From the IMG/VR virus record IMGVR_UViG_2671180674_000013: a DNA stretch of 13,397 nt; one strand, written 5' to 3'. A program made the translations under genes and the position numbers. Origin of the DNA: a virus (lineage: Duplodnaviria > Heunggongvirae > Uroviricota > Caudoviricetes). Below the pieces are notes generated by a model. That model saw nothing but the letters and a program-made list of their open reading frames with translations. It was not told the origin of the DNA and did not search any database. Numbering within the stretch: position 1 is the first letter of the stretch; every line of letters starts with the position of its first letter. Shown piece by piece: positions 2,148 through 13,397 of the stretch.

Positions 2148-2279
2148 CGGCAAAATTTTTCAAAATGTTGTACAGAATCAGGACGTTACCGGGACAACAA
2201 TATGTACGTAAAATGCACATAATGCCTTGCGTGAAAAAATAAATCGTTCGTATTCAATAAACTATGTGAATCCCGATCA

Positions 2280-2306
2280 CGGGTTCAACTCCCGCCAGCT
2301 CCACCA
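2280..2306 (+). other. attachment-site core: 27-nt copy of the 3' end of tmRNA gene ssrA (ends ...GCCAGCTCCACCA)
   Basis: CGGGTTCAACTCCCGCCAGCTCCACCA is identical to the 3' terminus of enterobacterial ssrA as I recall it. Sequence upstream of 2280 does not continue the ssrA match, so this is a displaced or partial 3' segment, not a full gene. Confidence 0.75.
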
Positions 2307-2341
2307 AATCATGATCCGGATACGTCCGGTGAAGTACAGAA

Positions 2342-2374
2342 AGCCCGCACGGCACAAGCCCTGCGGGCTTTTTT
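2342..2374 (+). terminator. rho-independent terminator (ssrA-type)
   Basis: Stem AGCCCGCA (2342-2349) pairs with TGCGGGCT (2362-2369), followed by a T-run 2369-2374. Confidence 0.7.
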
Positions 2375-2416
2375 GTGTCTGTCATTGTCCGAGAACATCC
2401 GGCTAAATCCAGAGAA

Positions 2417-2472
2417 AATTGGTACACGTTTAGGTACACGCTATACTGTGGTCCATTAAACGTGTACCAATT
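2417..2472 (+). promoter_or_regulatory. putative int promoter embedded in a 16-bp perfect inverted repeat (operator-like)
   Basis: AATTGGTACACGTTTA (2417-2432) and TAAACGTGTACCAATT (2457-2472) are exact reverse complements. A third GGTACACG copy is at 2433-2440. Between them lie a -35-like TTGGTA (2419-2424), a 17-bp spacer and a -10-like TATACT (2442-2447). The RBS GGAAGG (2475-2480) and ATG 2490 follow. Confidence 0.45.
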
Positions 2473-2489
2473 ATGGAAGGGATCCAGAC

Positions 2490-3680
2490 ATGGCGCGTAT
2501 CACACGCCCCCTCACTAACAATGAAATCCTTAAAGCCAAACCCCGTGAAAAAGACTTCACCCTTCATGATGGTGATGGCTTGTTCTTGCTCGTCAAAACC
2601 ACTGGTAAAAAACTCTGGCGCTTCCGTTATCAACGACCGGGAAGCAGCAGCCGCACAAATTTGAGTCTCGGCTCATATCCTGCCCTTACACTCGCAGCAG
2701 CTCGTCAGATACGCGACCAGCACTTAACCACGCTTGCGCAAGGTATGGATCCGCAGCAGCAACAAGAGCAGGCATCAGAACAACGTCAGATTGAGTTGGA
2801 TAGTATTTTCTCAACTGTGGCCGCCAACTGGTTCAAAATGAAGAGCAAAAGTGTCACTGAAGACTACGCTAAAGATATTTGGCGCTCTTTGGATAAGGAT
2901 GTGTTCCCTGCAATAGGCGCGATTCCTGTTCAGGAGATTAAGGCCAGAACGATAGTTGAAGCGTTGGAACCAATCAAAGCACGAGGTGCATTAGAAACTG
3001 TTCGTCGCTTGGTCCAGCGCATTAACGAAATAATGATTTACGCAGTTAACACAGGCCTGATTGATGCTAATCCGGCATCGGGTGTCGGAATGGCATTTGA
3101 GAAACCGAAAAAGCAAAACATGCCGACACTTCGACCAGAAGAATTGCCAAAGCTCATGCGCTCTTTGGTGATGTCGAATCTCTCAGTTTCGACCCGCTGT
3201 CTAATTGAATGGCAACTCCTGACGCTCGTGCGTCCATCTGAGGCTTCTGGCGCTCGGTGGGTAGAGATCGATCTTGATGCCAGGCTCTGGACAATTCCAG
3301 CAGAGCGGATGAAAGCAAATCGAGAGCATATCGTTCCTTTATCAACCCAGGCGTTAGAAATTTTGGAAGTAATGAAGCCTATTAGTGCTCATCGTGAACA
3401 TGTCTTCCCCAGTAGAAATGATCCCAAACAGCCAATGAATAGCCAGACGGCGAACGCTGCCTTAAAGCGGATTGGTTATGGTGGAAAGTTGGTTGCACAT
3501 GGTTTACGTTCAATTGCGAGTACAGCTATGAACGAGGCGGGATTCAATGCTGACGTCATTGAGTCTGCTCTAGCACACTCTGATAGAAATGAAGTTAGAA
3601 GAGCTTATAATCGTTCTACATATCTAGATAAAAAAATAATACTATTTAACTGGTGGGGTGCACAGGTCTATAAGAAGTAA
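2490..3680 (+). CDS. int: P4-family tyrosine integrase (CP4-57 IntA-like)
   Basis: 396 aa. N-terminal MARITRPLTNNEILKAKP...DGDGLFLLV...KLWRFRY and C-terminal HGLRSIASTAMNEAGF...ALAHSDRNEVRRAYNRSTYL match the conserved blocks of P4/CP4-57-type integrases as I remember them. It sits about 180 bp downstream of the ssrA 3' core, as intA does relative to ssrA in E. coli K-12. Confidence 0.9.
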   Translation: MARITRPLTNNEILKAKPREKDFTLHDGDGLFLLVKTTGKKLWRFRYQRPGSSSRTNLSLGSYPALTLAAARQIRDQHLTTLAQGMDPQQQQEQASEQRQIELDSIFSTVAANWFKMKSKSVTEDYAKDIWRSLDKDVFPAIGAIPVQEIKARTIVEALEPIKARGALETVRRLVQRINEIMIYAVNTGLIDANPASGVGMAFEKPKKQNMPTLRPEELPKLMRSLVMSNLSVSTRCLIEWQLLTLVRPSEASGARWVEIDLDARLWTIPAERMKANREHIVPLSTQALEILEVMKPISAHREHVFPSRNDPKQPMNSQTANAALKRIGYGGKLVAHGLRSIASTAMNEAGFNADVIESALAHSDRNEVRRAYNRSTYLDKKIILFNWWGAQVYKK

Positions 3681-3683
3681 ATA

Positions 3684-3705
3684 GAGCCTGCTGAAATGCA
3701 GGCTC
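3684..3705. terminator. bidirectional hairpin between convergent int and cargo gene
   Basis: GAGCCTGC (3684-3691) pairs with GCAGGCTC (3698-3705) around a 6-nt loop. It lies between the int stop (3680) and the minus-strand stop (3713), with T-rich flanks on both strands. Confidence 0.55.
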
Positions 3706-3712
3706 CACTTCT

Positions 3713-6349
3713 TTATTCAGTAAATATTACATCATCAATATTAAAAGACACTTTAAAATTAGGGTAGAGTTTCAATATTACCTTTTCGAAAATCTCATCA
3801 TCATCATTTAAATTTCTTGCTCTTGAATAAAGACGGTAATTATCTTTTGTTATTTGTTTAATTTCGATATGACAAGCATCATTACTATCAAAGCCTCTAA
3901 AGAAGGTAAAACTATCCAAACTTACAGCATAAATATTATTCAAGGCATTTTCGTCCTCAAAGAAGTAAGTTAACTTATAATCCTTATAAACTTCATAATT
4001 ATAGTTCTTAACTGAATTTTTATTCACAAATAATATATAATTACTCTTCTCTATATCAGCATCATTAAATTTTAAAAAACGCCCTCCTGCTTTGACACAA
4101 TTGAATAATTGCTGCTTATATATAGATATGATTCCATCTCCATATAGCCCAGCACTTGATAAATATGAAACATCATCAACCACGCCTAAAAACTCACGTT
4201 TTGATGGATAAAAAATTAGTTCACTTGTTTTATGGCATATAGGAAGCTTGGATAAATCAACATTTAATGTACTAACAAGCCATTTATTTAAATGTAAATT
4301 CACATCTATTTTAAAGCGTAATACAATGTTCTTATCCATTGTCGATTTTATAACTTTTCTCGTAACTTCTTTGCTCTTATACTCCAACATCATATCAAAT
4401 TTATCTTTAATTAAATCCACTTCCCTTTTCACTTCATTATTATCATACCCCATAGATGTTACCATTATATCTAATTCAGGAGACTCACACGCTTTAATTA
4501 GCAGGTGATAGTCGTTAGAACTAAATCCCACCACATCGACTAATTTACGCCAGTCGTACAAGTATCTCAGGTTAAACCCTCTACGTTTTACAGCCAAAAC
4601 CAATAATATAAAGACTAATGCTCTTATTGCATAGTGATATTCTGTAACAGTATAGGCCTCACCTTCCGGGAGATTTCTAATTCGTTGTTCATCTATACTT
4701 GCACGAATTCTTTCTTCATAAGAACCAAATAACATTCCATATAACTCAACTTCATCTGTATAATTAGAAAAGATAGCAAGATCGCTCCACAATTTGCTAG
4801 CATTAATTATCGCATCGATCTCCACGTCACTTTTATTGTCAGTTTGAATTGCGCTCCAACGCATCTGAAGAACAGTTAAAACAAACCGCTGAATTTTAAA
4901 TATAACAGAAATAATTTCGCTAGCATTTCTTTTTTCTAAATTCAAATACTTGACACTAAGATGCTTAGTTCCTGCATTAAAGTACTCCCCCCAAAACATT
5001 ATCGCACTGTAATCTAACTCATTGCATGCAGATTCAATCAACCCTTTAATGACTTCATAATAGTCTGCGTTATCATCGTGATAACTCAAATAACTATTCA
5101 AGGTATCTTCATGATTTTTGATAAAAGCATTAAAGTCATCTCTATTTAAAGAGAGTTTTGCTATCTGTATTATAAATTCTAACGCGGCAGTTTTCTTTCT
5201 AAGATTAACATTCAACTCAGAAAAATTATTCATTAACTCATCAATAGAATTTTTTTTCACATCCGAATTATTTAAATATTGATATGACAGTCCAAAAGCT
5301 ATATCAAAAGGATATGCTGAAACATCCCCATTAACTAAGCATGAAAAAACATTAATAGCATTTCTTATTGACTCTCTGTTATTTTCCAAAAGAGCACTAT
5401 ACAGATAGATGACAACCCCATTAATTAATTCATCATAATGATTAATCACTTTAAATTCATTATCTGTTATTAACACACCAACAATCAAAGAAGAAACTTT
5501 CTTTGATGATTTTTTATCCAAAATTTTTTTAGCCGTATAATTAACTTCTATAGTTTTGCTTCCACTACTATGCAGGTTAATATTTGGCACAATAATTTCA
5601 TATTCATCCAATAAACCTTTTATCTTCATTCCATTTAAAAAATTGTTTAGTTTATGGAATTTCTCTAAATCTATGTCAACAGTCAAAACATTATCACCCC
5701 CATATATCCCTATGCTATATGGTTGTTGCTTTTGCATTTTCATTTTGCCATAAGAATAATATCCATTTGGTAAATCTCTAACTAGATTTAAAATCTTATC
5801 ATGTAATTCAGAGTTAGCATCCTCTAACAAGGTATAACCCTTGACAAGACTTGAGCAGTGAGATTGTAAATACTCAACAGCGAAGTTCTTATTACGTGAC
5901 ATGTTAAATAATTTCAAGTATGTTTTAAAATACTTCAAAAGAAAATACATTGATAGTAATTGTGACACCACATACTGAGCAATACCACCACCAAAAACAA
6001 AAAAGAAGAATGAAATTATCAAGGTTGATATTGCATCAATACCAAACTGCACAAGGTTGATTTCATCCAGTATCTTTTTCCTAATATAACTTTCCAACGC
6101 ACGAGGTGAGGATTTATTAACAGCATCAACAGTCACACTCATAAAAGTTAATGACAACGCACTGATTGTACCGTGTATACCTAAGGAGACCCCCCAAGCA
6201 CTAAATATCCAATCAAACCCCAATTTTTTTAAATCACTAGAATTAGAAAACAACCACCACCACTCATTTTTACAAAAAAAAACAAGAATACATAAAGTAA
6301 AAAAAATAAAAAAACCAGAGATATAACAAAACAATCTTTTACCCATCAT
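3713..6349 (-). CDS. large membrane-anchored protein of unknown function; candidate anti-phage defence / abortive-infection effector
   Basis: 878-codon uninterrupted frame. Strongly AT-rich: a few sampled lines give roughly 20-32% G+C, against visibly GC-rich neighbours. The first ~145 residues contain 3-4 hydrophobic helices (LFCYISGFFIFFTLCILVFFC, FDWIFSAWGVSLGIHGTISALSLTFMSV, FGIDAISTLIISFFFFVFGGGIAQYVV). The remaining ~730 residues are hydrophilic and Asn/Lys/Tyr-rich with no canonical Walker A, HNH or PD-(D/E)xK motif seen by eye. AAGGA lies just upstream of the ATG. Confidence 0.8.
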   Translation of the reverse strand: MMGKRLFCYISGFFIFFTLCILVFFCKNEWWWLFSNSSDLKKLGFDWIFSAWGVSLGIHGTISALSLTFMSVTVDAVNKSSPRALESYIRKKILDEINLVQFGIDAISTLIISFFFFVFGGGIAQYVVSQLLSMYFLLKYFKTYLKLFNMSRNKNFAVEYLQSHCSSLVKGYTLLEDANSELHDKILNLVRDLPNGYYSYGKMKMQKQQPYSIGIYGGDNVLTVDIDLEKFHKLNNFLNGMKIKGLLDEYEIIVPNINLHSSGSKTIEVNYTAKKILDKKSSKKVSSLIVGVLITDNEFKVINHYDELINGVVIYLYSALLENNRESIRNAINVFSCLVNGDVSAYPFDIAFGLSYQYLNNSDVKKNSIDELMNNFSELNVNLRKKTAALEFIIQIAKLSLNRDDFNAFIKNHEDTLNSYLSYHDDNADYYEVIKGLIESACNELDYSAIMFWGEYFNAGTKHLSVKYLNLEKRNASEIISVIFKIQRFVLTVLQMRWSAIQTDNKSDVEIDAIINASKLWSDLAIFSNYTDEVELYGMLFGSYEERIRASIDEQRIRNLPEGEAYTVTEYHYAIRALVFILLVLAVKRRGFNLRYLYDWRKLVDVVGFSSNDYHLLIKACESPELDIMVTSMGYDNNEVKREVDLIKDKFDMMLEYKSKEVTRKVIKSTMDKNIVLRFKIDVNLHLNKWLVSTLNVDLSKLPICHKTSELIFYPSKREFLGVVDDVSYLSSAGLYGDGIISIYKQQLFNCVKAGGRFLKFNDADIEKSNYILFVNKNSVKNYNYEVYKDYKLTYFFEDENALNNIYAVSLDSFTFFRGFDSNDACHIEIKQITKDNYRLYSRARNLNDDDEIFEKVILKLYPNFKVSFNIDDVIFTE

Positions 6350-6648: not shown

Positions 6649-7215
6649 CTACCGTGCGGCCAGTTCTGCACGTCGGCGGGTGTAAATCAGGTTCTGTGCC
6701 GGGGTGAATTTCTGGCGATTATCATCCCGCGAAGCCGCATCAGGCCTGAATCCGATAGCCGTTAAAATATCGCTGTCCTGCACGGAATAATTAATTTTTT
6801 CACCTGCGGCCAGCCACACCGACAGGGCTTCACGCAGATAATCAACCGAGTGCTGCATGGCGCTCTGTTTTACTGCGGGAAGCTGTTCGTGATATCCCAT
6901 CAGCTCAGGTGCCAGCGTGGCGGCCAGCTCCGCGCCGTGCTGCTGCATAAAGTCATGGAGCCGGTTGCGGATACTGATGTGCTGCACCTCCTCATGTGAG
7001 CGGATATAGCGACCGGCGGCCTGATTAATTTCCCACTTTTTCACGTCGATATTGTCGCGCAAATCCTGCATTCTGAGCGGGATTTGTTCGTCACCGGCAA
7101 GGAGCTGTTCACGGTATTCCCGTTCAAGGTCTGCCAGTTCGGCTTTACGTTTCAGCCAGGTGTTTTTGTTCGTCTGACAGGCCTCAAAGGCCTGCTGTAT
7201 GGTCACAGTGGTCAC
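6649..7215 (-). CDS. psu: Psu-like protein (polarity suppression / capsid decoration), by position and size
   Basis: 188 aa, last gene of the minus-strand late operon, immediately before the cos-like site. P4 Psu is about 190 aa and occupies the same position (sid-delta-psu-cos). This is not a verified sequence match. Confidence 0.5.
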   Translation of the reverse strand: MTTVTIQQAFEACQTNKNTWLKRKAELADLEREYREQLLAGDEQIPLRMQDLRDNIDVKKWEINQAAGRYIRSHEEVQHISIRNRLHDFMQQHGAELAATLAPELMGYHEQLPAVKQSAMQHSVDYLREALSVWLAAGEKINYSVQDSDILTAIGFRPDAASRDDNRQKFTPAQNLIYTRRRAELAAR

Positions 7216-7230
7216 GTGTCTCTCTCCTGA

Positions 7231-7470
7231 TTAATGCCGGAACGGCGAGCTGTAGCAGCCCTGTACTTTACGCGGCGGCGGTGGCGTCACCGGGGCGGGG
7301 TCGGGTTTCTCCGGTGCGGCACGTATCACACCGTCAACCGACTCGATGGTGCGGAAAGTGGCCGAGCATTCGATATTGGTACACTGGTGATAACGCTGTT
7401 TGACGTTTTCCGACAGATAACGGCTGGTACGGACGTGCGCGGTATTTTTGCAGAACGGGCAGTGAAACAT
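7231..7470 (-). CDS. ogr: Ogr/Delta-family zinc-finger late transcriptional activator
   Basis: MFHCPFCKNTAHVRTSRYLSENVKQRYHQCTNIECSATFRTIESV carries the C-x2-C...C-x4-C spacing and the conserved RTSRY, RYHQC and CSATF blocks of P2 Ogr as I recall them. Single-domain, 79 aa. Confidence 0.85.
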   Translation of the reverse strand: MFHCPFCKNTAHVRTSRYLSENVKQRYHQCTNIECSATFRTIESVDGVIRAAPEKPDPAPVTPPPPRKVQGCYSSPFRH

Positions 7471-7473
7471 GAT

Positions 7474-8217
7474 TCAGCCCTCTGCCTGTTCGTGGGATTT
7501 TTCTGCCAGTTCAGCGGCAAGTTTCATCCGTCTGGCCGGGCTTCTTAACAGCGCCATATCAACCCCGGTTATGACCGGGCGATTCATGCCCGTTACGGAC
7601 AGGACCGGCTCCTGCTCCATATCAAAATGATACAGGGCTGACTGCATATTCAGGGCATCACCCAGCTCGCGGGTCACGGTCGCACGCGGCGAGGTATCTC
7701 CACTCATTTCCAGCGACCGTATACGCAACAGAAAGGCACGTAACAGTGCAGGATTGATACCGGTCAGCGCCTTCTTCCACTCGCTGTTGGCGTAGGTAGT
7801 GAACGCTTTTTCATGGGCGCTGATATAAGCCGTACCGGAGGAGCATGCGCCAAGCATGGCGTGGCTTTTGTCTTTCTCCAGCTCGGTAATCAGACCGGTG
7901 AACTCATCAGCCAGTTCGCGGCTGGCGATACGTTTGCTGTGTTCAGCTTTCAGTTCAGGAGTGAGGTTGCCGCGCAGAGTTCGAAAGCGGCTGCGCCAGT
8001 CCTGTTCGGCCTGTGCGCTTTCACTGAGGGCGGTCTGTCGTTCCTGCTCACAACGCTGAATGGAAGCCTCAATGTCGCTGAGTTTACCCATGCAGGCCGA
8101 GTGTGCGTCTTTTGCTTCGTTAAGTGCGGCCAGCGCACCGGCAATACGTTGTTCCGCGCCTTCATCCTGTTTACTGATAACGGTCTGCATGGCTTTGATA
8201 ATGAGTTCGGGTTTCAT
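7474..8217 (-). CDS. Sid-like protein (capsid size determination scaffold), by position
   Basis: First gene of the late operon, just upstream of the ogr/delta-like gene. Start placed at the ATG complementary to 8215-8217, which has GGAG 9 nt upstream and gives 247 aa (P4 Sid is about 244 aa). The ORF track extends it to 8283 without an RBS and into the putative promoter. Confidence 0.45.
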   Translation of the reverse strand: MKPELIIKAMQTVISKQDEGAEQRIAGALAALNEAKDAHSACMGKLSDIEASIQRCEQERQTALSESAQAEQDWRSRFRTLRGNLTPELKAEHSKRIASRELADEFTGLITELEKDKSHAMLGACSSGTAYISAHEKAFTTYANSEWKKALTGINPALLRAFLLRIRSLEMSGDTSPRATVTRELGDALNMQSALYHFDMEQEPVLSVTGMNRPVITGVDMALLRSPARRMKLAAELAEKSHEQAEG

Positions 8218-8289
8218 GTTCAGGTTCTCCGTATGTTCAACCTGAAATGATTCTGACGCCTCCTGCACAACAACACGATTCATTGCCGT

Positions 8290-8754: not shown

Positions 8755-9021
8755 ATGCACACCGCTTTTTCTTCCCCGTCTTCTGCCCCTGCCGCGCCGC
8801 TGATGCCGGTTTCTGATACCGTTCACGAGCGCTTTATCCGTCTGCCCGAAGTGATGCATCTGTGCGGCCTGTCCCGCTCGACCATTTACGACCTCATCAG
8901 CCGGGAAGCCTTCCCGAAACAAATCTCCCTCGGCGGAAAAAACGTGGCGTGGGCGCAGTCTGAAATCACTGCATGGATGGCGGATCGCATTGCCGAACGT
9001 AACCGGGGCTATGACGCATGA
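8755..9021 (+). CDS. alpA: AlpA-family phage transcriptional regulator (MerR-like HTH)
   Basis: The segment [47 protein letters not shown] matches the AlpA helix-turn-helix pattern (RLP.V....G.SR.TIY......FP.....G...V.W...EI..W). GAGG lies 8 nt before ATG 8755. Confidence 0.7.
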
Positions 9022-9148
9022 TGATGGCCGCTCAGCAAAAAGCCCCTTTTTCTGGCTTGCTTCTTTTCGCCGTTTCCAGGTATAGTTTTCCCGCTGTCGC
9101 AAAATCGGCAGCCGGGATTGGCGTCCCGTTTACAACATTGGCGACACC

Positions 9149-9171
9149 GGACGCGCCTTGCGTCTTTTTTT
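9149..9171 (+). terminator. short-stem intrinsic terminator in the leader downstream of the alpA-like gene
   Basis: GACGC (9150-9154) pairs with GCGTC (9160-9164) around a 5-nt loop, followed by seven T (9165-9171). The stem is only 5 bp, so it is weak or conditional. Confidence 0.35.
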
Positions 9172-9374
9172 GTGTCTATGCCTCAGCGCATCCATTTTTG
9201 ATCCAGAGATTTATCTGTCTATGGATCCTTCGTGTAATGGTGGCTCAGGCGGGGGCTTCTCACGAAGCGCCGGTTTCCAATGTTGCCGGTTACGCCAACC
9301 CCGTCTGGGCTACCACCAGTGAAATTGGCGTTTCCAGTGGTAGCAGTCACATGCAAACATTGGAGGTTGCCACT

Positions 9375-9569
9375 ATGGCTACGACCCTCACCCCGTCACA
9401 CCCGCAGTTTGTCTTTGTGTTTGCCGCCGTTCGTCGCGCAGACCGTAAACCCCGTATTTGCATGCTGCGCACCGTTGCCGGTGACGAGCACGCCGCACGC
9501 CTTTCCCTCGTTCGCGATTACATCCTCTCGTTCGCTGGCCGTCTGCCGGTTGCGGAGGTGCGCGCATGA
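9375..9569 (+). CDS. hypothetical small protein (64 aa)
   Basis: Strong GGAGG at 9362-9366, 8-nt spacer, ATG 9375. The longer 9018-start form in the ORF track has non-protein-like composition upstream of this ATG. Confidence 0.5.
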
Positions 9570-10121: not shown

Positions 10122-12455
10122 ATGAAAATGAACGTAACGGACACCGTAAAACAGGCGTGCGGCCACTGGCCGCGCATTCTCCCTGCGCTGGGTGTGAAGG
10201 TGATTAAAAACCGCCATCAGTCCTGCCCGGTGTGCGGCGGCTCCGACCGCTTTCGCTTTGACGATAAAGAGGGGCGCGGGACGTGGTTCTGTAACCAGTG
10301 CGGCGCGGGAGACGGCCTGAAACTGGTAGAGAAAGTGTTCGGCATGACCCCGTCAGAGGCGGCCGGGAAGGTGAACGCCGTGACCGGCAACCTGCCGCCG
10401 GTTTCCCCGGAAGTGACTGCGGCCGCAGAGGCCGAAACTGTGGCCGACCGCAAAGCGGCGGCCGCGCTGGCCGTCAGGATCATGGAGAAAACCCGACCGG
10501 CCACCGGCAATGCCTACCTCACCCGCAAGGGTTTCCCCGACCGGGAATGTCTGACGCTCACCGTCATGCATAAAACCGGCGGCGTGACGTTCCGCGCCGG
10601 TGATGTGGTTGTCCCGCTGTATGAGGATACCGGCACACTGGTTAACCTTCAGCTTATCAATGCTGACGGTCTCAAGCGCACCCTGAAAGGCGGTCAGGTC
10701 AAAGGTGCATGCCATACCATTGAAGGGCAAAAACAGGCGGGAAAACGCCTGTGGATTGCGGAGGGTTATGCGACCGCGCTCACCGTGCATCACCTGACCG
10801 GGGAAACCGTCATGGTGGCGCTGTCCTCCGTGAACCTCCTTTCTCTGGCGAGCCTTACCCGTCAGAAGTCCCCGGCCTGTCAGATTGTGCTGGCCGCTGA
10901 CCGTGACCTGAACGGCGACGGCCAGAGCAAAGCCGCTGCGGCCGCAGATGCCTGTGAGGGCATTGTTGCCCTGCCGCCGGTGTTCGGTGACTGGAATGAT
11001 GCGTTTATGCAGAAAGGTGAAGAGGCCACGCGGAAAGCCATTTATGACGCCATCCGGCCACCGGCGCAAAGTCCGTTTGATACCATGAGCGAAGCGGAAT
11101 TTACCGCCATGAGCGCCAGCGACAAGGCCTTGCGGGTGCATGAGCATTACGGCGAAGCGCTGGCGGTGGATGCGAACGGCCAGCTCCTGTCCCGCTATGA
11201 AAACGGCATCTGGAAAAATATCCCTGCCGCCACTTTCTCACGGAATGTGGCTGACTTATTCCAGCGTCTGCGCGCCCCGTTCTCGTCCGGGAAAATTGCC
11301 TCGGTAGTGGAGACCCTGAAACTGATTATTCCGCAGCAGGATACACCGGCACGTCGTCTGATTGGCTTTCGCAACGGGGTACTCGATACCCAAAGCGGCG
11401 TATTCAGCCCGCACCATAAATCGCACTGGCTGCGCACGCTGTGCGACGTGGATTTTACCCCGCCGGTGGACGGGGAAACGCTGGAGACTCACGCGCCAAA
11501 CTTCTGGCGCTGGCTCGACCGTGCAGCCGGTAAAAACCCACAAAAACGCGACGTGATTCTGGCCGCGCTTTTTATGGTGCTGGCGAACCGTTACGACTGG
11601 CAGCTCTTTCTCGAAGTGACCGGTCCCGGCGGGAGTGGCAAAAGTATTCTGGCCGAAATCGCGACCCTGCTCGCCGGAGAGGATAACGCCACGTCGGCCG
11701 ACATCGACACGCTGGAAGACCCGCGCAAGCGAGCATCCCTGATTGGCTTCTCGCTAATCCGTCTGCCTGACCAGGAAAAATGGAGCGGTGACGGCGCAGG
11801 ACTCAAGGCAATCACCGGCGGCGATGCGGTCTCGGTTGACCCGAAATACCAGAACCCCTATTCCACGCATATTCCGGCTGTAATTCTGGCCGTGAACAAC
11901 AACCCGATGCGCTTCACCGACCGCAGCGGCGGCGTGTCGCGTCGCCGGGTGATTATTCACTTCCCGGAGCAGATTGCCCCGGAGGAACGCGACCCGCAGC
12001 TCAGGGATAAAATTGCGCGCGAGCTGGCCGTCATTGTGCGCCAGCTTATGCAGAAATTCAGCGACCCGATGACCGCGCGCACACTGCTCCAGTCGCAGCA
12101 GAACTCCGACGAGGCACTCAGCATCAAGCGCGATGCTGACCCGACGTTTGATTTTTGCGGCTATCTGGAAATGCTGCCGCAGACCAACGGGATGTTTATG
12201 GGGAATGCCAGCATCATCCCGCGTAATTATCGTAAATATCTCTATCACGCGTATCTGGCCTATATGGAGGCTAACGGCTACAGGAACGTGCTCAGCCTGA
12301 AAATGTTCGGGCTGGGGCTGCCCATGATGCTGAAAGAGTACGGCCTGAATTATGAGAAGCGGCACACCAAGCAGGGGATACAAACCAATCTGTCGCTGAA
12401 AGAGGAAAGCTACGGAGACTGGTTGCCGAAGTGCGATGACCCCACAGCAACATAA
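10122..12455 (+). CDS. P4 alpha-type bifunctional primase/helicase
   Basis: 777 aa, the same length as P4 alpha. N-terminal zinc-ribbon C-P-V-C-G-G...C-N-Q-C-G, a Toprim-like LWIAEGYATALTVH...AADRD segment, and a Walker A GPGGSGKS (from VTGPGGSGKSIL) in the C-terminal helicase half. GC-rich, with iterons following. Confidence 0.9.
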   Translation: MKMNVTDTVKQACGHWPRILPALGVKVIKNRHQSCPVCGGSDRFRFDDKEGRGTWFCNQCGAGDGLKLVEKVFGMTPSEAAGKVNAVTGNLPPVSPEVTAAAEAETVADRKAAAALAVRIMEKTRPATGNAYLTRKGFPDRECLTLTVMHKTGGVTFRAGDVVVPLYEDTGTLVNLQLINADGLKRTLKGGQVKGACHTIEGQKQAGKRLWIAEGYATALTVHHLTGETVMVALSSVNLLSLASLTRQKSPACQIVLAADRDLNGDGQSKAAAAADACEGIVALPPVFGDWNDAFMQKGEEATRKAIYDAIRPPAQSPFDTMSEAEFTAMSASDKALRVHEHYGEALAVDANGQLLSRYENGIWKNIPAATFSRNVADLFQRLRAPFSSGKIASVVETLKLIIPQQDTPARRLIGFRNGVLDTQSGVFSPHHKSHWLRTLCDVDFTPPVDGETLETHAPNFWRWLDRAAGKNPQKRDVILAALFMVLANRYDWQLFLEVTGPGGSGKSILAEIATLLAGEDNATSADIDTLEDPRKRASLIGFSLIRLPDQEKWSGDGAGLKAITGGDAVSVDPKYQNPYSTHIPAVILAVNNNPMRFTDRSGGVSRRRVIIHFPEQIAPEERDPQLRDKIARELAVIVRQLMQKFSDPMTARTLLQSQQNSDEALSIKRDADPTFDFCGYLEMLPQTNGMFMGNASIIPRNYRKYLYHAYLAYMEANGYRNVLSLKMFGLGLPMMLKEYGLNYEKRHTKQGIQTNLSLKEESYGDWLPKCDDPTAT

Positions 12456-12463
12456 CCTCACTC

Positions 12464-12490
12464 AGACCGGCATCAGCCGGTCTTTTCCTT
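12464..12490 (+). terminator. rho-independent terminator after the primase gene
   Basis: AGACCGG (12464-12470) pairs with CCGGTCT (12477-12483) around a 6-nt loop, followed by TTTTCCTTTC. Confidence 0.6.
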
Positions 12491-12507
12491 TCTGACCATT
12501 GCCACAG

Positions 12508-12792
12508 GGTGAACAATCCACTGTTCACCCTTCACCGTATATTCACCCTGTATCACCATGAAATTATTGATAAAAAACCAGAGGTGAACAGTGTGAATAG
12601 TAAAACCTGAAAAAACTTTTTATCCCTCCACCACATCGCCTGACCGGGCGCATCCAGAGCGAGAAAAAAACACAAAGGTGAAGAGTCGACTGTTCACTCT
12701 TCACCAACTCATCACCATTTATCTTTATGATTTAAAATAGAAAATAAGCATGGTGAACAGTGTGAACAGTTAAATGCAAAAAAACTTTTTTT
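12508..12792. repeat. iteron cluster of TGTTCACC/GGTGAACA octamers with A/T-tract elements (P4 ori-like)
   Basis: GGTGAACA at 12508-12515, 12583-12590 and 12752-12759. TGTTCACC at 12522-12529. Near-copies at 12531-12537, 12541-12548, 12677-12684, 12691-12698, 12700-12705 and 12761-12769. Inverted repeat GGTGAAGAGT (12677-12686) / ACTCTTCACC (12696-12705). A5-6CT5-7 tracts at 12609-12623 and 12776-12792. Confidence 0.7.
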
Positions 12793-12858
12793 GAGTATGA
12801 TGTAGCTCTCCATACTTTATGGAAAGATCCAAGTTAGCTGAAAGCCTCACCAAGACAG

Positions 12859-12877
12859 CACGTTAATTCGTAACGTG
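12859..12877. promoter_or_regulatory. inverted repeat (operator-like) just upstream of the terminal AT-rich ORF
   Basis: CACGTTA (12859-12865) and TAACGTG (12871-12877) flank a 5-nt spacer, about 20 nt before ATG 12897. Confidence 0.3.
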
Positions 12878-12896
12878 TTAAGCAAAAGGGAATTTT

Positions 12897-13397
12897 ATGG
12901 GGACTACTTTGCTTCAAGAAAACCATGAAAAAATTTTAAACATACTAAATGAAGCTAAAGATGTGGCGCTAAGGTATTACAAATTAACCAATAAGCCTCT
13001 CGGAATCACTGGAGAAATAGCTGAACATGAAGCTGCAACTCTTCTCGGGTTGTCACTATGTTCAGCACGTCAGTCCGGATACGATGCGACTGAGATTTTG
13101 GACGGGAAAGAATATAGAGTTCAAATCAAAGGTCGATATATGCCTGATCCTAAAAAAGTCTCTGCGAGAATTGGTGCTATTGATATATCTAAGCCATTTG
13201 ATTCTGTTCTTTTAGTTTTGCTTGATGAAAATTATGATGCTTTTGCCATGTATGAAGCATCACGAGATGTAGTAGTCGCAGCTCTTCAAGCTCCGGGGTC
13301 AAAGTCTAGAAATGAGCGAAATCAACTAGGCATAGCAAAATTCAAGTCCATTAGCCGTCTCCGCTGGAGCAAGGTTGCTGAACCTGAGATCCTTTAA
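12897..13397 (+). CDS. hypothetical protein (166 aa), AT-rich accessory gene at the alpha-proximal end of the element
   Basis: Complete frame from ATG 12897 to TAA 13395-13397, with an AGGGA-type RBS upstream. Composition is markedly more AT-rich than the adjacent primase gene. No family recognised. The spaced acidic/basic residues (GEIAEHE...GYDATE...RVQIKGR) are weakly reminiscent of a PD-(D/E)xK-like core, which is speculative. Confidence 0.6.
   Translation: MGTTLLQENHEKILNILNEAKDVALRYYKLTNKPLGITGEIAEHEAATLLGLSLCSARQSGYDATEILDGKEYRVQIKGRYMPDPKKVSARIGAIDISKPFDSVLLVLLDENYDAFAMYEASRDVVVAALQAPGSKSRNERNQLGIAKFKSISRLRWSKVAEPEIL

Follow-up and report, generated by a model that had tools for sequence, protein, structure and literature searches.

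A putative Esp638I-type restriction endonuclease gene as defence cargo of a P4-like satellite integrated at ssrA

The window, by which we mean the whole 13,397-nt stretch of DNA that was analysed, holds a complete P4-like satellite with all P4 core genes, in which Pfam matched int, Psu, Ogr_Delta, AlpA, Ash and alpha domains. The left att copy (2280-2306, + strand) is identical over its 27 nt to the 3' end of ssrA, which encodes tmRNA. The P4-type tyrosine integrase gene of the satellite lies at 2490-3680 on the + strand (Pfam Arm-DNA-bind_3, Phage_int_M and Phage_integrase), and the classical hotspot between int and psu is occupied by an AT-rich ORF of 877 aa (3713-6349, - strand, G+C 30%). 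The psu and delta genes and an ORF in the sid position follow at 6649-8283 on the - strand; the product of the sid-position ORF, 268 aa long, has no Pfam match. AlpA, an Ash-family gene and DUF5375 are also among the satellite genes. Rfam placed the P4 immunity RNAs c4-a1b1, isrK and C4 antisense RNA at 9080-9320, inside the Ash-family ORF (9018-9569) or overlapping it, and this segment is the P4-type RNA immunity region. The alpha-type primase-helicase gene (10122-12455, + strand) encodes 777 aa with the Pfam domains Zn_Ribbon_Prim, Toprim_3, D5_N, DUF5906 and Pox_D5. The first 2306 nt of the window are the terminal part of another integrated element, in which a DUF5406 gene (1-378) and, at 948-2147, a gene for a tyrosine integrase (Arm-DNA-bind_2) are present. 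Two mobile elements thus stand in tandem at ssrA and share the att copy at 2280-2306.

Just past the alpha stop codon there is a terminator-like hairpin (12464-12483, + strand), followed at 12504-12770 by a crr-type iteron field that was delimited by repeat search and is not assigned to a strand. This field consists of GGTGAACAGTG/CACTGTTCACC and TGTTCACC/GGTGAACA repeats, in families designated D1, D2 and I1-I21, and includes a 114-nt direct duplication. We take it to correspond to P4 crr, the cis replication region. It forms the left boundary of a cargo slot, in which the earlier note had seen a complete 166-aa ORF of clearly lower G+C than the adjacent primase gene. Both observations were correct: the ORF runs on the + strand from an ATG at 12897 to a TAA at 13397, the final three bases of the window, and its G+C is 0.403 (GC3 0.29) vs 0.593 (GC3 0.71) for alpha. 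An E. coli element at ssrA (NCTC10973) that is otherwise collinear but lacks the gene has 61 nt in place of 604 nt, and we therefore set the bounds of the inserted cassette at 12793-13397. The first 104 nt of the cassette (12793-12896, + strand) are a leader, in which a Shine-Dalgarno-like AAGGGA (12886-12891) is separated by 5 nt from the ATG. A promoter scan returned 0 sigma-70 consensus sites upstream of the ORF, and Rfam found no RNA family within 12400-13397. The leader also contains the inverted repeat to which the same note had drawn attention, CACGTTA-ATTCG-TAACGTG at 12859-12877. The repeat exists, but we give it no weight and reject it as a regulatory element, because its arms are just 7 bp long, shuffling the 104-nt leader yields a comparable hairpin in 4.5% of cases, and its counterpart upstream of the Esp638I orthologue described below is degraded without compensatory changes.

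The window ends at the stop codon of the ORF, and the right att site was therefore placed from related loci. In 20 of these, conservation extends for about 95 nt 3' of the stop, up to and including ...GACTCCGCCAGC(C/T)C(C)ACCA, which duplicates the 3' end of ssrA. Past this att copy the flanks diverge, into ypjA, an invasin gene, another integrase gene or fljA-fljB-hin. As judged from these loci, attR would lie approximately 75-95 nt beyond the window end. Because both the att copy and the point of flank divergence follow the stop codon in the related loci, the ORF is placed inside the satellite, between the ori-like region (iterons at 12504-12770) and the right att site, as had been supposed, and the possibility that it is a chromosomal gene outside the element was rejected. 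A 21-mer, TTGGTACACGTTTAGGTACAC, stands next to int (2419-2439, + strand) and also directly after the ORF stop in related loci (for example, L001 15999-16019). An inverted GTGTACCAA occurs at 2463-2471, and TTGGTATACGCTTAGGTATAC, a variant of TTGGTACACGTTTAGGTACAC, is present in elements with other slot content. The TTGGTACACGTTTAGGTACAC and GTGTACCAA copies are probably integrase arm-type binding sites that flank the attP core.

We then considered the identity of the 166-aa protein. The PADLOC model PDLC03209, mREase_II ('Type II methyl-directed restriction enzyme'), matched residues 1-166 of 166 with an E value of 9.8e-101. DUF6998 was the sole Pfam match (E 6e-7), as a single domain spanning the protein, and NCBIfam gave no match. 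Among 2030 homologues, cluster P0021 was 89% identical to the window protein without gaps over 166/166 residues, 18 of which differ. P0021 is accession ABP61776, that is, Esp638I of Enterobacter sp. 638, a 166-aa enzyme listed with the specificity 'GCNNGC or RCNNGY (4-6 m5C)' (Xu et al. 2016, PMC4926085). The window protein itself has the same sequence as WP_001592532 (100% identity), a protein of E. coli KMi029 that was named among the Esp638I homologues in Suppl. Fig. S7 of the same study (PMC4926085). When sequences of PDB entries were searched with phmmer, the matches were Eco15I (E 1e-4) and NhoI, the two BisI-family enzymes that have been crystallised, and a 40-sequence profile raised these matches to 9e-6 for Eco15I and 3e-4 for NhoI. 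Matches to phage structural or housekeeping families, which had also been considered, did not appear. The 166-aa protein is thus very probably an Esp638I-type (BisI-family) modification-dependent endonuclease, a Type IIM restriction enzyme by family, carried as defence cargo by a P4-like satellite. Of the three roles proposed earlier, toxin, defence component or anti-defence factor, the 89% identity to Esp638I favours defence.

The catalytic residues expected of such an enzyme are present. The Esp638I family is described by the motif E-X19-22-D-X12-QxK, a Mrr-like PD-QxK site (PMC4926085), and the window protein fits it with E43-X19-D63-X12-Q76-I77-K78. In 40 homologues with identities as low as 55%, E43, D63, Q76, K78, D102, D110, E40, E45, R80, R123, R138, N139 and W157 are invariant. 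Mutational data are available for the related enzyme Pam7902I, in which the substitutions E39A, D59A, K74A, D98A and D106A each eliminate activity, while Q72A leaves part of it (PMC8281217). D-X12-QxK fixes the register between the two proteins, so that E39, D59, Q72, K74, D98 and D106 of Pam7902I map with an offset of +4 to E43, D63, Q76, K78, D102 and D110 of the window protein. In HMMER alignments with Eco15I and NhoI, E43 and D63 fall on AE and AD/WD, and QIK on QIK/QVK, and Eco15I became inactive when its residues at these positions were mutated (PMC11347163). Both enzymes also carry Asp at the positions aligned to D102 and D110. Judging from these alignments, E43, D63, Q76 and K78 form the predicted active site, an E-X19-D-X12-QxK variant of the PD-(D/E)XK site. 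The earlier note had picked three patches, GEIAEHE, GYDATE and RVQIKGR, as a weak hint of a small nuclease-like fold; these hold E43, D63 and Q76/K78, and because they align to the mutated residues of Pam7902I and Eco15I, the hint turned out to point at the putative active site itself. The alignments to Eco15I and NhoI, by sequence and by profile alike, end at about residue 122-126, so that the C-terminal (H/R)(V/I/T/M) methyl-pocket motif of these enzymes is left unaligned. The invariant R138-N139 lies in the region that corresponds to this motif, past the end of the alignments.

Structure prediction, which had been proposed as a check, agreed with this assignment. An AlphaFold2 model made from the 40-sequence alignment (pLDDT 89.5, pTM 0.85) shows one compact domain plus a long a0 helix (residues 2-31), with helix a1 at 38-50 and a b1-b2-b3 core at 53-81. 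The first 11 matches of this model in a Foldseek search of the PDB were chains of Eco15I and NhoI (E 4e-6 to 4e-4), followed by PvuII. The TM-scores were moderate, 0.45-0.53, which we attribute to the orientation of a0 and a divergent C-terminal part in the model. The crystal structures of BisI-family enzymes gave the same order of relatives, with PvuII next (PMC11347163). The protein also has the size and domain layout of the Esp638I subfamily, being 166 aa long (range 150-190 aa) and without a separate modification-sensor domain.

Esp638I (ABP61776 / WP_015960106) is the closest characterised enzyme. It is a biochemically characterised Type IIM member of the BisI family that needs at least four methylated cytosines (PMC4926085). 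It cuts the m5C-containing DNA of Xp12 and M.CviPI- or M.SssI-methylated plasmid at GCS^SGC, with RCN^NGY as the relaxed site, and leaves blunt ends, whereas unmodified pBR322 and GCNGC-methylated pBRFM are barely cut (PMC4926085). The two proteins share their length, the E-X19-D-X12-QxK motif and the slot between alpha and att (L019 = CP000653); they differ by the 18 substitutions, and the activity of the window protein is a prediction. Pam7902I, Pfl8569I and PaePS50I belong to the same subfamily (PMC8281217), and homologues from Pseudomonas share 55-62% identity with the window protein. All residues that Pam7902I requires are conserved in it, and Pam7902I cuts m5C DNA at GCS^SGC (PMC8281217); however, enzymes of this type are encoded on Pseudomonas genomic islands and megaplasmids rather than on P4-like satellites. 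BisI, NhoI and Eco15I (8q5m, 8q5n, 8q5o, 8rpx; PMC11347163) have the same single-domain PD-QxK fold with an a0 dimerisation helix, and in NhoI and Eco15I the AE, xD and QxK elements and the two downstream Asp residues align with the window protein. These three enzymes are more distant, with approximately 16-26% identity, and they cut GCNGC with 1-nt 5' overhangs, whereas Esp638I cuts GCNNGC with blunt ends; Eco15I has an extra C-terminal domain as well. EcoBLMcrX of E. coli B (PMC5487053) is likewise BisI-related, modification-dependent and encoded on a variable genomic island, and it restricts phage DNA containing hm5C or m5C. We rejected it as the closest E. coli enzyme because, by its description, it lies on a different island (thiM-mrp), belongs to another subfamily and has the specificity Rm5C|.

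We next analysed the slot between alpha and att in related elements. The loci comprised 14 listed places, together with E. coli KMi029 and five loci from genome scans, and the statistics on context come mainly from loci that encode the protein. The earlier note had suggested looking for recurrence next to P4-type alpha genes. At 14 of the 14 listed places of the exact protein and Esp638I, the gene stands after a P4 alpha gene and before an att copy, while the hotspot cargo and the chromosomal flanks differ. Likewise, the gene follows P4 alpha in every enterobacterial locus of the lineage for which upstream sequence is available, except a truncated Kluyvera contig and a Buttiauxella remnant. 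Where the Esp638I-type gene is alone in the slot, about 440 nt separate it from alpha. Other elements have a different content: E. coli 3PT carries a 231-aa ORF (L028 2946-3641), Pantoea ananatis carries a 439-aa ORF (L021 6416-7735) together with an Esp638I-type gene, and Enterobacter sp. 638 and Lelliottia carry a minus-strand ORF of 167-181 aa in addition to the gene (L019 9016-9561; L015 9017-9520). In Enterobacter sp. 638 this extra ORF, of 181 aa, lies between alpha and the gene, a difference from the window. The 231-aa, 439-aa and 167-181-aa ORFs have no Pfam or PADLOC match and are possibly further defence cargo.

Because its content varies among related elements, the alpha-att slot is a second, small cargo position of the P4-type element. 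The earlier note had read it in this way, and such a position has already been reported: a minor P4 defence hotspot between the primase gene and att holds 7% of P4 defence systems (NAR 2026, PMC13586616). The window gene sits in this minor hotspot, with the difference that its divergence tracks that of alpha instead of reflecting free swapping. Esp638I, BisI and mREase are unmentioned in the main texts of both studies (Rousset et al. 2022, PMC9122126; PMC13586616). The prototype Esp638I gene itself (CP000653, L019) lies in the alpha-att slot of a P4-like satellite, whose hotspot between int and psu, its main one, holds an OLD-type nuclease, compared with the 877-aa ORF in the window. We did not find this satellite context of Esp638I stated in the literature searched, including PMC4926085, PMC8281217 and PMC11347163. 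The enzyme family and the exact protein, listed in 2016, were thus already known and PADLOC covers the full length; the satellite context of the Esp638I subfamily is a small addition.

In an assembly collection, 5234 indexed blocks contain the exact protein, which occurs in Salmonella, Klebsiella, Citrobacter, Escherichia and Kluyvera. Among complete E. coli genomes, the ORF was found in 1 of 5426 and the alpha/crr type of the window in 921. The identities of gene and alpha to the window copies fall in step (100%/96-100%, 96%/96%, 89%/86% and 70%/69%), and in the elements where they run parallel, psu and the main-hotspot cargo vary freely. These data suggest long co-inheritance of the Esp638I-type gene with the replication module in an ssrA-integrating lineage. 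In a Buttiauxella metagenome-assembled genome (L004 8870-10600), ssrA is followed by the 3' tail of alpha, crr-like iterons, a gene 78% identical to that of the window and an att copy, with no other satellite genes, which looks like a case in which the defence gene was domesticated and outlived the satellite. Outside these elements, Proteus has a homologue of 65-66% identity adjoining a Type I R-M system, and in Pseudomonas homologues of 52-58% identity are carried by islands and megaplasmids. All plasmid matches were below 60% identity and came from Pseudomonas, rhizobial and Burkholderia replicons. No relatives of the 166-aa protein were found in deposited phage genomes. We consider it possible, at somewhat less than even chances, that the Esp638I-type enzyme is a long-term co-inherited module of one ssrA-integrating P4-like lineage, not freely swapped cargo, and that it outlives satellite decay as a domesticated gene.

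The mechanism that we propose is built on the characterised relatives. The protein would be a small, single-domain, Mg2+-dependent PD-(D/E)XK endonuclease, an orthologue of Esp638I, and would form a homodimer through its long N-terminal helix, by analogy with NhoI and Eco15I. The dimer would clamp double-stranded DNA, sense several 5-methyl (or 5-hydroxymethyl) cytosines in a short pseudo-palindrome without base flipping, and then cleave the two strands within this pseudo-palindrome. With Esp638I, at 89% identity, as the model, the recognition sequence would be GCS^SGC / RCN^NGY containing four or more modified cytosines, cut to blunt ends. The enzyme would work without a partner methyltransferase, and at the loci examined no adjacent methyltransferase gene was found, the neighbours being the alpha gene and the att site. 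Sparsely methylated host DNA would be a poor substrate; methylation of the Dcm type is not expected to be attacked, because at least four modified cytosines are needed per site. Expressed in the lysogen, as we infer, the 604-nt cassette between crr and attR would most likely shield it from phages or entering DNA whose cytosines are densely modified. The lack of a consensus promoter upstream and the terminator-like hairpin after alpha count against such expression. Dense cytosine modification is not known from P2 or P4 DNA, and the satellite and its unmodified P2-type helper would benefit from the protection of the lysogen. The physiological targets of the BisI family have been described as an open question (PMC11347163).

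The specificity of the window protein may differ from that of Esp638I, given 18 substitutions in 166 residues and a family whose specificity shifts easily (GCNGC vs GCNNGC). One could thus imagine an enzyme of the same fold and family with altered or relaxed specificity, one that recognises another modified motif, nicks, or cuts unmodified DNA, and that would act as a toxin or an abortive-infection effector. There are precedents, since some BisI-family homologues, Bce1273I and Bth171I, cut unmodified DNA (PMC4926085) and KpnW2I nicks it (PMC8281217), and the 18 differing positions leave room for such a change. However, the window protein is 89% identical to Esp638I and retains every family-invariant residue, and activity on unmodified DNA is hard to square with the spread of the gene in Salmonella, Klebsiella, Citrobacter and E. 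coli without an adjacent methylase or antitoxin gene. We therefore regard this explanation as unlikely and prefer a modification-dependent enzyme of the Esp638I type.

The gene is also under purifying selection: dN/dS of the ORF was 0.106 against the Esp638I gene (dS 0.60, dN 0.064) and 0.13 against the Citrobacter portucalensis copy. This bears on the suggestion that the ORF is a decaying or silent passenger with no current function, which would be in keeping with the lack of a recognisable sigma-70 promoter and the truncated copies in databases, such as members of 112-144 aa. A dN/dS of 0.11 over a dS of 0.60, the intact frame, the invariance of the catalytic residues across genera and the retention of the gene after satellite loss in the Buttiauxella remnant all speak against decay, and the passenger explanation is very improbable. 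That the product serves the life cycle of the satellite, acting on helper or satellite DNA in replication, excision or packaging, would suit a gene directly between crr and the att arm sites whose divergence tracks that of alpha, but it is hardly credible because most related P4-like elements lack the gene (921 E. coli genomes with the alpha/crr type, one with the ORF), the collinear NCTC10973 element has 61 nt instead, homologues occur off satellites beside the Proteus Type I R-M system and on Pseudomonas islands and megaplasmids, and P2 and P4 DNA is not known to be densely cytosine-modified.

An Esp638I-type defence enzyme thus being the preferred interpretation, a protein that is annotated as 'DUF6998 / hypothetical protein' in many Salmonella, Klebsiella, Citrobacter and E. 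coli assemblies gains a testable function, that of a 5-methylcytosine-dependent, Esp638I-type enzyme, and prototype Esp638I is placed on P4-like satellites. The catalogue of satellite-borne defence is enlarged, with no new mechanism. A modest use would be the prediction of strains that reject heavily C5-methylated DNA or cytosine-modified phages. If it is true that the enzyme restricts cytosine-modified phages in vivo, the defence targets of the BisI family could be studied with these satellites in a natural genetic system.

The closest relatives of the window element are those at L007 and L014, in which alpha and psu are 100% identical to the window copies. Both carry, next to the gene in the sid position, an IS21-family insertion (rve + IstB; 2217-4519) that is absent from the window. 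The 877-aa ORF between int and psu (3713-6349, - strand) matches no Pfam family and has in PADLOC just a weak AbiEi match (E 1e-3). It recurs in E. coli ETEC1732/1734, in strain E2 and at loci L007 and L014, and is an uncharacterised candidate defence gene.
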